Below, piece after piece: positions 9,001-15,000 of a stretch of DNA of 33,994 bases. The position numbers were made by a program. Source of the DNA: a virus (taxonomy: Duplodnaviria; Heunggongvirae; Uroviricota; Caudoviricetes); the IMG/VR virus record IMGVR_UViG_2802429242_000009, positions 1-33,994 of that record; one strand, 5' to 3'. Every line of letters begins with the position of its first letter. Within the stretch, counting starts at the first letter, position 1.

Positions 9001-12000
9001 GCTTTTCGATGAACTGGAGCGTAAATCGTTAACGGCGTCTGTTGGCGGTTTTGCTTATATCGCTGAGATCGCAAAGAACACGCCAAGCGCAGCAAACATC
9101 GTTGCCTATGCAATGCAGGTTCGTGAAACCGCAATGGAACGCTACGCCATCAACCGCATGACTGAAGCGACGGAATTGCTCTATTCCCGCAACGGAATGA
9201 CTGCAACGCAGAAGTACGAAGCTATTCAGGCGATTTTCACGCAACTGACAGACCATGCAAAAACCGGATCGCGTCGCGGCCTTCGCTCATTTGGTGAGGT
9301 CATGGAAGACTGGGTTAGCGACCTTGAGAAGCGATTTGACCCTTCAGGAGAACAACGAGGAATGAGCACAGGGATCCCATCGCTGGACAGGATGCTGTCA
9401 CCGAAAGGTCTGGTGAAAGGCTCTCTGTTTGTCATTGGCGCTCGCCCTAAGATGGGGAAAACGACGCTATACAGCCAGATGGCAATCAACTGCGCAGTTC
9501 ATGAGAAAAAGCCTGCTCTGATGTTCAGCCTTGAAATGCCAGGTGACCAGATACTGGAAAAACTGGTGGGACAGAAGTCAGGTGTTAACCCGAATATTTT
9601 TTACCTTCCGGCGACAAATGACGCTGATGACGGCTATCAGGGTGATTACGATGGTGACTTCAACAGGGCGATCGAAACAGCTAATCGTTTGAGTGAAATC
9701 GACCTGCTTTACATCGACGACACGCCGGGATTATCTCTGGCTCAAATCGTCAGCGAAAGCCGTCGAATCAAGCGAGAAAAAGGATGCGTTGGCATGATTC
9801 TGGTCGATTACCTGACACTAATGACTGCTGAGAAGGCCGATCGCAACGACCTTGCTTACGGCATGATCACCAAAGGACTGAAGAACCTTGCCAAAGAGCT
9901 TGATTGCGTTGTTGTGCTTCTGACACAGCTTAACCGCGCATTGGAAAGCCGAACCAATAAACGCCCATTACCAAGTGACTCGCGAGATACAGGGCAGATT
10001 GAACAGGATTGCGATTATTGGGTCGGGATCCATCGTGAAGGCGCTTTTGATGACAGTGTTCCACCTGGTGAAACTGAACTAATCCTTCGTCTCAATCGTC
10101 ATGGCAATACCGGCACGGTGTATTGCATTCAGGCAAATGGCGCTATTTATGACACAGACCAACAGTCTGCTGAAATGCGCCGCCGTGAGCGCGAGGAACC
10201 GCAATCCAAGAAGAAAGGAGGATTCTGATGACCATCTACATCACTGAGCTTGTAACAGGCCTGCTGGTAATCGCAGGCCTTTTTATTTGGGGGAGAGTAA
10301 TTCTGGAGGTTTTAAGAAATGAGTTCGATGACTGAGCTTGTCCGCGCCGACTTTCAGGAGAACATTGGTCGTGCAAAGCGGTACTGGTCTGCTTCCAGAC
10401 TTCCTACTGGCGAGAGACAGAAAAACGCCCCTAAGCCACGGAGCTATCCGCGTGACCGTGTTCTTCGTCGGTTGGTTAAAATCGATAATGATTTTCAGTG
10501 TGACAGAATTATCCGTAGCTTGGATTTTAAAGTGAAGGAGTAACGATGAAGCAAACAATCTTCCTCCGAACTAAGCAACAACAGCAAGCCGCAATCAACG
10601 CCATCCTCGCAACACCACTCGATAAAGACAAGCCAGTCACCATCCGCATTACTGACTACAAGCGCAACCTTGACCAGAACGCAAAATTTCACGCGATGCT
10701 GGCGGATATCGCTAGGCAAGTTCAGTGGCGCGATAAATGGTTAAAACCAGAACAATGGAAGGTTTTGTTGATTAGCGGTCATGCAGTGGCAACAAAACAG
10801 GAAGCTGATGTTTTGCCCGGCCTTGAAGGAGAATGCGTCAACATTCGCGAAAGCAGCGCGCAGATGAGCGTGAAGCGCATGGCAAGTCTGATCGAGTACA
10901 CAACAGCCTGGGCTATTGGTCAGGGTGTCAGATTTACCGACAGGAGGTACGAATGAGGCGACAGCGACGAAGTATCACCGACATAATCTGCGAAAACTGC
11001 AAATACCTTCCAACGAAACGCTCCAGAAATAAATGCAAGCCAATCCCAAAAGAATCTGACGTAAAAACCTTCAACTACACGGCTCACCTGTGGGATATCC
11101 GGTGGCTAAGACATCGTGCGAGGAAATGACAATGGATTATTCACAGTTAAGTGATTTTGAAATTAACAGAATGGTAGGAGACATAATTTTTAAAGGCCTT
11201 TGGGTATGTAAACCGGAAACGTCAGGGAATAACACCAACAAATGGTATTACGGAAATGCTGATACAACTTTTGAGCCATTAAACCCTTTACCTGACTACT
11301 GCAATGATCCGAGCGCCTCATGGCCTGTAATCGCGAAACATCATATCAGCATATGTGCATACGAAAGAAATAATCCTGGAATGAAGAATGAATATTGGTG
11401 GGAGGCAGATAGATTTTGTGAATTTATTACCATAGACAACAACCCACTCCGCGCCGCCATGATTGTATTTCTCATGATGCAGGACGCCAATAATGCTTAG
11501 CCCATCCCAATCCATTCAATACCAGAAAGAAAGCGTCGAGCGGGCTTTAACGTGCGCTAACTGCGGTCAGAAGCTGCATGTGCTGGAAGTTCACGTGTGC
11601 TCAGATTGCTGCGCAGAACTGATGAGCGATCCGAATAGCTCAATGTACGAGGAAGAAGACGATGAATGAGTTAATAAATGGCAATGCCATCAAAATGACA
11701 AGCATTGAAATCGCTGAGTTGGTTGGTAAGCGTCATGACAATGTGAAACGTACCATCGAAACGCTGGCTAAAAATGGTGTTATCCGGCTTCCTCAAATTG
11801 AGGTTTCCGAAAGAATCAATAACTTAGGGTTCAATGTTCAGTACGAGCATTACGTCTTCGAAGGCGAACAAGGTAAGCGAGACAGTATTGTCGTTGTTGC
11901 CCAGTTGTCGCCGGAATTCACCGCTCGCCTTGTTGACCGCTGGCGAGAGCTTGAAGAAGCTGCGGTTAATATCCCCAAAACGCTACCAGAAGCGTTGCGC

Positions 12001-15000
12001 CTTGCTGCTGATCTTGCCGAGAAGAAAATGCAACTGGAAAACCAGCTCGCAATTGCCGCACCTAAAGTTGAGTTTGCCGATCGCGTTGGCGAGGCCAGCG
12101 GAATTTTGATTGGAAACTTTGCAAAGGTTGTTGGAATTGGTCCAAACAAACTGTTTGCGTGGATGCGCGATCACAAAATCCTTATTGCTTCAGGTTCCCG
12201 GCGCAATGTGCCAATGCAGGAATATATGGATCGCGGCTATTTCACAGTGAAAGAAACAGCGGTCAACACAAATCACGGGATACAGATATCGTTCACCACA
12301 AAAATCACCGGGCGTGGTCAACAGTGGCTGACCAGAAAGCTGCTCGATAACGGAATGCTGAAAGTAACAGGGGAGGCTGCTTAATGGCTAATCTACGCAA
12401 AGAAGCACGCGGCAGAGAATGCCAGGTACGTATTTACGGCGTATGCAATGGCAATCCTGAAACTACAGTTCTGGCACATTACCGGATGGCTGGAATTTGC
12501 GGAACGGGAATGAAGCCTGACGACCTGATCGGCGCATGGGCTTGTAGTGACTGCCACGCGGAGATCGACCGACGCACCCGGATTCTCGACAACAAAGACG
12601 CCAGACTTTACCACCTCGAAGGCGTGATCAGGACACAGGCGATACTGCTGAAGGAGGGGAAGATTAAGCCATGAACGAATATCAGTTTGTGCTTCCATAC
12701 CCGCCGTCGGTGAATACCTACTGGCGAAGACGGGAAAGTCAATACTACATCAGCGATAAAGGCCAGAAATACCGAAAAGACGTCCAGCAAATCATCCGCC
12801 AACTCAAGTTAGATATTTTCACCAAATCACGACTCCGCATCAAAGTCATCGCAGACGTTCCAGACTCCCGCCGCCGCGACCTCGATAACATCCTGAAAGG
12901 TTTACTCGACTCCCTTATCCACGCCGGATTTGCGGAAGACGACGAGCAATTCGATGACATTCGCGTAATTCGTGGCGTGAAAGTACCAGGCGGACGGCTT
13001 GGAATAAAAATCACCGAACTGGAGAACGCATGAACGCCACAATTCAAACGATACCAGAGCTTCTTATCCAGACACGAGGCAATCAGACCGAAGTGGCGAG
13101 GATGCTTTCCTGCGCAAGAGGAACAGTGCTCAAGTACAACCGAGACAGCAAAGGCGAGCGTCACGTAATAGTTAACGGCGTCCTGATGGTCACGCCAGGC
13201 AAAAAGGGAAGACGATGAGCATAAGAGAACTAAACCTCACCAAAGAACAGCACGAGTGGCTGAATGGCTGGCTTGAACTGTGGGGCGCATGGGTTTATTC
13301 AGGTCGTCTGGAAAAGCGCATGAGCAGCGTAATAGCGAAGTTCATGGAGAGCGTAGAGCCGGGAAGAATTATGACAAGGCCAATGTGTAATGATGATGAT
13401 GGAATGTTGATTTCTCAGGTCGTCGATTCCGTCATGTACATTGACAAGAAAGCCTTTGGAATCCTCCTCAGCTACTACGCTCATGGCTCTTCCAAGCACG
13501 CCATTGCATCTTACTATCATCGCGTCGCAAAACCTCGCAAGATGTTATGCCGTGGCGGCGGGCGCATTCAAAAACCATCGCTCGCAACCTGTCGACGGGA
13601 AGTTGACGAAATCCTCAATGCCTCGTTGTTTATGATTTACCCGGTTCTGGATAGTGCGTTTAAAAATCGGAAACGTGTAGAGAAAATTAAACATGTAGCA
13701 TAGAACGTGTTGACATCATTGAGCAAATGAGCAACACTATTGGCATAAGCTGCCGTTAGTGACTCTTAAGTTGCAACGGTGGCTTTTTTTATTTGGGTCA
13801 GTCGTATAAAGGTCATTACGGAAGGCTGTTAACCTTCTTATCGTGGTTCGAGTCCACGCTGTCCCGCCAAACATGCTGGTTTAGCTCTAATGGTAGAGCA
13901 GTCGCCTTGTAAGCGAATGGGTAGCGGTTCAAGTCCGTTAACCAGCACCATAACTGAGCCGTAGCCACTGGCTATCCTGAATTCATCAGTGATAGTTACG
14001 CTGCGGCCTTCTTTTTTCCCCTTCCCAATATAAGAACTACGCAATCCGTTACTGGCGGAGGCGTTGCTATGAAATCAATGGACAAAATCTCAACTGGCAT
14101 TGCCTACGGAACATCTGCTGGTAGTGCAGGATACTGGTTTTTGCAGTGGTTGGATCAGGTCAGTCCGTCACAGTGGGCAGCGATTGGAGTGCTTGGAAGC
14201 CTTGTGTTGGGTTTTCTCACTTATCTGACAAATCTGTATTTCAAAATCAGAGAAGACAGACGAAAGGCTGCGAGAGGTGAATAATGCCTCCATCATTACG
14301 AAAAGCCGTTGCTGCTGCTATTGGTGGCGGGGCTATTGCTATAGCATCTGCGTTAATCACTGGCCCAAGTGGTAACGATGGTCTGGAAGGCGTCAGCTAC
14401 ATACCATATAAAGATATCGTTGGTGTATGGACTGTATGTCACGGACACACCGGAAAAGACATCATTCCCGGTAAAACGTATACCGAAGCAGAATGCAAAG
14501 CCCTCCTGAATAAAGACCTTGCCACGGTCGCCAGACAAATTAACCCGTACATCAAAGTCGATATACCGGAAACAACGCGCGGCGCTCTTTACTCGTTCGT
14601 CTACAACGTGGGTGCTGGCAATTTCAGAACATCGACGCTTCTTCGCAAAATAAACCAGGGCGATATCAAAGGCGCATGTGACCAGCTACGTCGCTGGACA
14701 TACGCTGGCGGTAAGCAATGGAAAGGGCTGATGACCCGTCGTGATATTGAGCGTGAAGTCTGTTTGTGGGGGCAGCAATGAGCAGGTTAACCGCGATTAT
14801 CTCCGCTCTGGTTATCTGCATCATCGTCTGCCTGTCATGGGCTGTTAATCATTACCGTGATAACGCCATCGCCTACAAAGACCAGCGCGATAAAGCCACA
14901 TCTATCATCTCTGATATGCAGAAGCGTCAACGTGATGTAGCTGAACTCGATGCCAGATATACAAAGGAACTTGCTGATGCTAACGCGACTATCGAAAGTC

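Follow-up and report, generated by a model that had tools for sequence, protein, structure and literature searches.

The closest described relatives of the locus studied here are the roi genes of phages HK022, HK620 and HK97, and the nin (N-independence) region of phage P22. The Roi protein of HK022 reportedly binds within its own gene near a closely linked site for the integration host factor (IHF), and IHF is said to stabilise that binding; the HK022 roi mutants that no longer need IHF are said to be scattered through the gene and to be altered in DNA binding. The Rha family, as Pfam and TIGRFAM describe it, is known from the rha gene of phage phi80, which interferes with growth on IHF-deficient hosts. 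According to the papers that cite it, the work of Clerget and Boccard (1996) showed that HK022 Roi binds DNA and has an effect on lytic growth in IHF mutants. In P22, the nin region has the order ninB-ninD-ninE-ninX-ninF-ninG-ninY-ninH-ninZ-23. Here we present a window of 33,994 nt (positions 1 to 33,994 of the IMG/VR virus record IMGVR_UViG_2802429242_000009) from a P22-like phage or prophage (Lederbergvirus; similar to Sf6, HK620 and CUS-3) with E. coli as its host. The interval at 11126-12384 (1259 nt, + strand) includes three genes, ninX, ninF and roi. We consider it probable that this interval is a standard delayed-early nin segment, part of the rightward operon in a P22-like lambdoid phage of E. 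coli, and that its Roi, by orthology with that of HK022, is a DNA-binding protein linked to IHF. A previous description of this DNA, which we call the sequence-only reading, reported two genes in the interval. The genes it described are indeed present at 11126-12384 on the + strand, but it missed ninF (PF05810), which lies between the other two. The main features of the interval are the following.

11126 or 11132 to 11500, + strand: ninX (PF10765; phrog_444)
11493 to 11669, + strand: ninF (PF05810; phrog_672)
11662 to 12384, + strand: roi, 240 residues (PF09669 and PF03374; phrog_63 at E=3e-99)
11695 to 11958, + strand: coding sequence of the Rha domain of Roi (Pfam envelope, residues 12-99)
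11725 to 11859, + strand: allelic variable segment of roi (residues 22-66; predicted second helix and beta-hairpin wing)
11814 to 11826, + strand: IHF consensus site AATCAATAACTTA inside roi, a sequence match to WATCAANNNNTTR
12037 to 12345, + strand: coding sequence of the ANT/KilAC domain of Roi (residues 126-228; nearly invariant across Roi alleles)

Judged by protein identity, the 240-residue gene is roi, an ortholog of the roi genes of HK620 and HK022. Its product has 237 of 240 residues (99%) in common with the HK620 protein annotated as "DNA-binding protein Roi", from which it differs by three substitutions, and 212 of 241 (88%) in common with HK022 Roi, where all the differences fall inside residues 22-66. 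The Roi proteins of HK022, HK620 and HK97 are alike in length (240 residues here, 240 in HK620, 241 in HK022), and they have the same two domains. The N-terminus matches PF09669 Phage_pRha over residues 12-99 (36.7 bits, cutoff 29.9, profile positions 1-91 of 91), and the C-terminus matches PF03374 ANT/KilAC over residues 126-228 (113.5 bits, cutoff 25.3, E=8e-33, profile positions 1-106 of 108). The sequence-only reading had proposed a domain search for Bro-N or Rha together with KilA-C. Rha and KilAC are both found above their curated cutoffs, and Bro-N (PF02498) gives no Pfam hit with E<=0.1. In the NCBIfam scan, Roi matches only TIGR02681 phage_pRha, below threshold (17.9 bits against a cutoff of 45.95) and over residues 12-36 alone; a PDB sequence search with Roi gives no match at E<=1. 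Thus, compared to the Rha proteins of phi80 and P22 (PF09669, TIGR02681), Roi shares the N-terminal domain but stays far below the TIGR02681 cutoff, carries an extra KilAC domain, and is encoded in the early nin region and not in the late operon. The phenotype that the literature, as it is cited, gives to Roi and that is attributed to Rha is the same, an interference with growth on IHF-deficient hosts. The databases contain more than 7000 Roi homologs, two clusters of which have 2355 and 1265 members at 98-99% identity, and close relatives are named "anti-repressor Ant". Among the longer database proteins that contain Roi sequence, two of 294 residues join NinB (PF05772) to KilAC, and two of 304 residues have an extra N-terminal extension; these entries may represent fusions made by recombination or errors of gene calling.

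The variation amongst Roi homologs is concentrated in residues 22-66, for which there are at least five allele types, and the remaining protein is nearly invariant; the per-position entropy is lowest at residues 141-240. In the AlphaFold2 model, residues 11-70 adopt a strand-helix-helix-hairpin topology, that is, a winged helix, and the variable segment corresponds to the second helix and the wing. Residues 22-66 look like an exchangeable DNA-specificity element in this model. By analogy with the HK022 protein, we infer that Roi is a two-domain, sequence-specific DNA-binding regulator.

The variable patch of roi includes a candidate IHF site. The consensus WATCAANNNNTTR has two matches in the 34-kb window, and one of them, a perfect one, is that at 11814-11826. 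We looked for the same consensus in 43 full-length roi genes (the one in the window, 40 from IMG/VR loci and two from further loci), and it is present in 43 of 43, at nucleotides 153-165 of the gene, across at least five alleles. HK022 and HK620 are both included. The bases specified by the consensus do not vary in any of them, even where they impose the rare leucine codon TTA, while the four unspecified bases appear as TAAC, TGGG or TGAT and change the encoded residue between N, G and D. As a candidate binding site, this conserved consensus fits the HK022 Roi genetics of 1996, and it would also fit the link of the Rha family to IHF-deficient hosts. It is a concrete site that bears on Roi function, and a mildly useful by-product of the analysis.

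By orthology with HK022, the Roi of the window would bind a site in its own gene, beside the IHF site, and IHF would stabilise the complex. Such a Roi-IHF complex may tune the level or the action of Roi, and with it lytic development; in a host without IHF, Roi would turn inhibitory to phage growth.

Several observations weigh against a DNA-binding, IHF-linked Roi. The two IHF consensus matches in 34 kb are what is expected by chance (1.99). The conservation of the site could be accounted for by a constraint on the INxLG residues of the protein instead of a constraint on the DNA. Beside the intragenic IHF site, in both the window and HK022, a search for operator-like repeats finds short unconvincing pairs only, and the Roi operator was not located. 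The Roi model is poor overall (predicted local distance difference test, pLDDT, of 46.8), it derives from a shallow alignment of 32 sequences at 84-99% identity because close relatives saturate the list of homologs, and residues 11-70 (pLDDT 68-84) are its sole confident part. The allele carried by the window and by HK620 differs from the HK022 allele that was studied exactly at the predicted recognition helix and wing; because residues 22-66 differ, the Roi of the window may have another DNA target. Finally, DNA binding leaves the role of the KilAC domain unexplained.

A more specific version of this mechanism, which we put forward as a tentative idea and think rather unlikely, is that the Roi alleles are self-contained specificity cassettes. 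A patch of about 135 nt would encode both the helix and wing and its own operator, arranged around the invariant IHF site, such that the specificity and its target travel together. In that case, the Roi-IHF complex would serve as an autoregulatory roadblock or sink that gates read-through to the late antiterminator gene Q, and it would set late timing according to the level of IHF in the host.

The three genes are embedded in a rightward operon with the following neighbours, listed together with the repressor and Cro genes.

6413 to 7063, - strand: prophage repressor of the cI/C2 type (PF01381 HTH_3 and PF00717 Peptidase_S24)
7144 to 7329, divergent from the repressor gene and adjoining it: Cro gene of the P22 type (PF14549)
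8777 to 10228: DnaB-like helicase gene, upstream of the tR2-like terminator
10257 to 10280, + strand: tR2-like intrinsic terminator (stem-loop and T-run), 3' of the DnaB-like helicase gene and at the start of the nin region
10546 to 10956, + strand: ninB, recombination mediator (PF05772, 182 bits)
10953 to 11129, + strand: ninE (PF05322, 145.6 bits), the ATGA of its start overlapping the ninB stop
12384 to 12674, + strand: ybcO, DUF1364 (HkbD), putative nuclease (PF07102, 148 bits)
12671 to 13033, + strand: rusA, Holliday-junction resolvase (PF05866)
13030 to 13218, + strand: ninH (PF06322)
13215 to 13703, + strand: Q, late antiterminator, at the end of the nin region (PF06530)

The flanks given by the sequence-only reading, ninE (10953-11129) on one side and YbcO/RusA/NinH (12384-13218) on the other, are thus borne out by Pfam. 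At the position equivalent to 10257-10280, the annotation of HK620 gives the tR2 terminator and that of HK75 a terminator. From ninB to Q, each gene overlaps the next, by 1-8 nt, or by 4 nt where the shared bases are ATGA; the overlap is 8 nt between ninX and ninF and again between ninF and roi, and 1 nt between roi and ybcO. Promoter-like and terminator-like sites for ninX, ninF and roi occur in the number expected from shuffled sequence, none of them above chance. A scan for LexA boxes over 10000-13900 returns a single match, with one mismatch, which lies within a tRNA gene, and none near ninX or roi.

From this layout and the biology of lambda and P22, we infer that transcription of ninX, ninF and roi starts at the early rightward promoter and reaches them only once N-type antitermination has carried it past the tR2-like terminator. 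They would also be translationally coupled to their neighbours; because their start and stop codons overlap, the three genes are expected to be co-transcribed and co-translated. Under such read-through expression, the three proteins would therefore be made in lytic growth or after induction, and not in a repressed prophage.

The KilAC half of Roi is where other proposals about its function enter. In the Listeria phage phi10403S, the ANT/KilAC domain of the AriS protein inhibits the SOS response by itself, and AriS-like proteins are defined by exchangeable N-terminal domains (AntA/B, Bro-N or pRha) joined to a C-terminal ANT/KilAC. Roi could be a dual regulator of that kind, its N-terminus controlling the genes of its own phage and its ANT/KilAC domain acting on a conserved host target, so as to damp the SOS response (RecA) and to align co-resident SOS-inducible elements. 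The pRha plus KilAC architecture of Roi agrees with the AriS-like definition, and a KilAC half that is nearly invariant next to an N-terminal half that is allelic is what one expects if the target in the host is conserved. The KilAC half of Roi is 36-41% identical to proteins of Listeria, Streptococcus and Staphylococcus phages. However, this identity is low, is confined to the KilAC half in the comparison with AriS (about 36-41%), and spans different host phyla. The inhibition of SOS by AriS is known from Listeria only and mainly on overexpression, while at native levels SOS is not reduced. The HK022 mutants that reportedly escape the IHF requirement, being altered in DNA binding, point to DNA binding as the relevant activity. 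We judge an AriS-like role for Roi improbable.

The sequence-only reading had suggested that an antirepressor-like regulator at this position could mediate induction cross-talk with other prophages; Roi would then be a true antirepressor that inactivates the repressor of its own or of co-resident prophages and spreads induction between them. The proposal has its origin in the C-terminal domain, which belongs to the Pfam family ANT/KilAC, shared with P1 Ant1/KilA and named after them, and in the database name of the close Roi relatives. It also has a precedent in Salmonella, where trans-acting antirepressors encoded 3' of the replication genes of the Gifsy phages coordinate prophage induction. 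The Gifsy paradigm consists of small antirepressors, a LexA-controlled and terminator-insulated unit, and non-cleavable repressors, and we looked for these features in the window. The location 3' of the replication genes is all that roi shares with the Gifsy genes GfoA and GftA. These are small and LexA-controlled; Roi is not small, and roi has neither a LexA box nor a promoter of its own nearby, being translationally coupled within the early operon. The repressor of this phage has a Peptidase_S24 self-cleavage domain of the type stimulated by RecA, and because of it induction does not need an antirepressor. Moreover, Roi would appear only once its own prophage is already derepressed. The part of Roi that varies is a predicted winged-helix recognition element, which suggests specificity for DNA rather than for a repressor, and the published work on Roi, as the citing papers report it, is about its binding to DNA and its inhibition of lytic growth rather than about induction. 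For the KilAC domain, we found no experimental link to repressor binding, and its "exact function is still unclear". The context thus lends no support to cross-talk by way of an antirepressor, which we consider very improbable here. P22 does carry an antirepressor module, the immI region (mnt-arc-ant), between its injection genes and its tailspike gene. No immI/ant region is found between the DNA-injection genes and the tailspike gene of the window, where the gap is about 165 nt (30853-31018); because only about 165 nt are present at the immI position, this phage is without the Ant antirepressor module of the P22 type. The label "antirepressor" on Roi is a transfer of the Pfam domain name. As a caution, finding that label on a Rha/KilAC protein at this position is not evidence of repressor inactivation or of cross-talk between prophages.

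The standard nin segment, with Roi as its probable IHF-linked DNA-binding member, also includes ninX and ninF, which are conserved nin genes of the dispensable type. NinX has 124 residues if it begins at the ATG at 11126, which overlaps the ninE stop as ATGA, or 122 residues from the ATG at 11132, which is the equivalent of the start used in RefSeq relatives. It matches PF10765 Phage_P22_NinX (DUF2591) over its full length (42.8 bits, cutoff 22.6, E=7e-11), and phrog_444 at E=1e-46, so that the NinX-like assignment of the sequence-only reading is upheld. The AT-richness it pointed to is real and modest: ninX has a GC content of 0.396 compared to 0.478 for the window, and falls at the 5.9th percentile among 369-nt windows. 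The protein is 40% identical to P22 NinX and 93% identical to the nearest protein cluster. Its AlphaFold2 model has a pLDDT of 87, and the folds that match it best, 1r7l and 4pup, belong to proteins of unknown function; a PDB sequence search with NinX gives no match at E<=10, and in the literature we found NinX in genome-annotation mentions only. NinX-family genes are present in 556 phage records, many of them from Vibrio phages. NinF is a small Cys-rich protein of 58 residues, zinc-ribbon-like, that matches PF05810 (51.6 bits, cutoff 27.5) and phrog_672 (E=9e-37).

The content of the nin region is not unusual, contrary to what the sequence-only reading had implied. The order ninE-ninX-ninF is that of P22, including the overlapping frames, and the order ninF-roi-ybcO(hkbD)-rusA-ninH-Q is that of HK620, HK75 and HK022. 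Unlike P22, the window has no ninD, and after ninF it continues with roi-ybcO-rusA, as HK620 and HK022 do, where P22 has ninG-ninY. Comparisons with these phages and with phage vB_EcoP-720R6 (720R6 below) locate the boundaries of the mosaic. Relative to HK620, HK75 and HK022, homology ends at the ninE stop (11126) and restarts at 11527, within the 5' part of ninF; therefore ninX together with the ninF start is a 400-nt indel. Relative to P22 and 720R6, the ends of ninX and the linkers on either side are conserved (in P22, the DNA around the ninX body is 94-96% identical), whereas the body at 11169-11440 is a divergent allele. Relative to 720R6, homology ends at the ninF stop (11669) and restarts at the ybcO start (12383); the roi cassette (11670-12382) therefore has its limits precisely at the ends of genes. 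In 720R6, a 70-residue open reading frame (ORF) takes the place of roi.

We surveyed the two slots in the 80 IMG/VR contigs with the closest ninF alleles, a sample biased toward close ninF alleles, with the following occupants.

Slot between ninE and ninF: NinX-family gene, 48 of 79
Slot between ninE and ninF: unrelated 135-residue ORF with a coiled-coil-like C-terminus, 23
Slot between ninE and ninF: 1.4-kb segment with a 224-residue Ant-like ORF, 8
Slot after ninF: roi, 42 of 80
Slot after ninF: 70-residue ORF, 12
Slot after ninF: ninG directly, 10
Slot after ninF: HNH endonuclease and other small ORFs, the remainder

The sequence-only reading had called ninX and roi accessory insertions. 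As for their position, this is sound, and they do occupy variable mosaic slots with sharp boundaries; but they are also the commonest occupants of those slots, and they are annotated in the 41 complete E. coli genomes described below. This is textbook lambdoid nin-region mosaicism in well-known variable slots, and not an unusual acquisition. The 1.4-kb Ant-like segment seen in the ninX slot has the arrangement of Shiga toxin (Stx) phages, in which "Ant" precedes Roi.

That ninX, roi or both are morons, that is, host-serving, defence or anti-defence cargo outside the phage programme, is hardly credible: their slots do hold alternative genes in relatives (HNH endonucleases, small unknown ORFs), the GC content of ninX is below that of its neighbours and accessory genes are known to occur between the replication genes and Q, but neither gene has the promoter or terminator of its own that is the usual moron anatomy, no PADLOC defence model matches NinX, NinF or Roi, the fold of NinX matches uncharacterised proteins only, and the NinX family is widespread in phage records and sits at the same position in P22.

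All three genes are already known, and many records of phages and of E. coli name and annotate them. In a set of 5426 complete E. coli genomes, part of the 1259-nt interval is found in 2310, and 41 have 80% or more of it, with identities of 94-98.5%. The chromosome of E. coli SWYH.B349aT is collinear with the window over 10546-13219 at 97% identity, and the RefSeq names there are NinE, NinX family, NinF, "phage antirepressor KilAC domain-containing protein" and DUF1364.

Elsewhere in the window, we observed three groups of genes that do not belong to the nin segment. An Rfam scan of the whole window reports two tRNAs only, and no match in the 11126-12384 interval. The two tRNA genes, Asn-GTT and Thr-TGT (13795-13869 and 13875-13950, + strand), are situated after Q and before the holin gene, in the late promoter/leader region, and the same Asn-GTT/Thr-TGT pair is annotated in 720R6. 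In the early leftward region, the gene at 4939-5577 (- strand) encodes a 212-residue protein with a strong match (239 bits) to Nmad5, nucleotide modification associated domain 5. It is flanked by ORFs of 322 residues (3795-4763, - strand) and 123 residues (5574-5945, - strand), both without a Pfam match, and the three together may be an accessory or DNA-modification module. Directly 3' of the tailspike gene (31018-32814), a 369-residue ORF of the Acyl_transf_3 family (32885-33994, + strand) ends on the last base of the window; its product resembles the O-antigen acetyltransferases for serotype conversion in Sf6-like phages.

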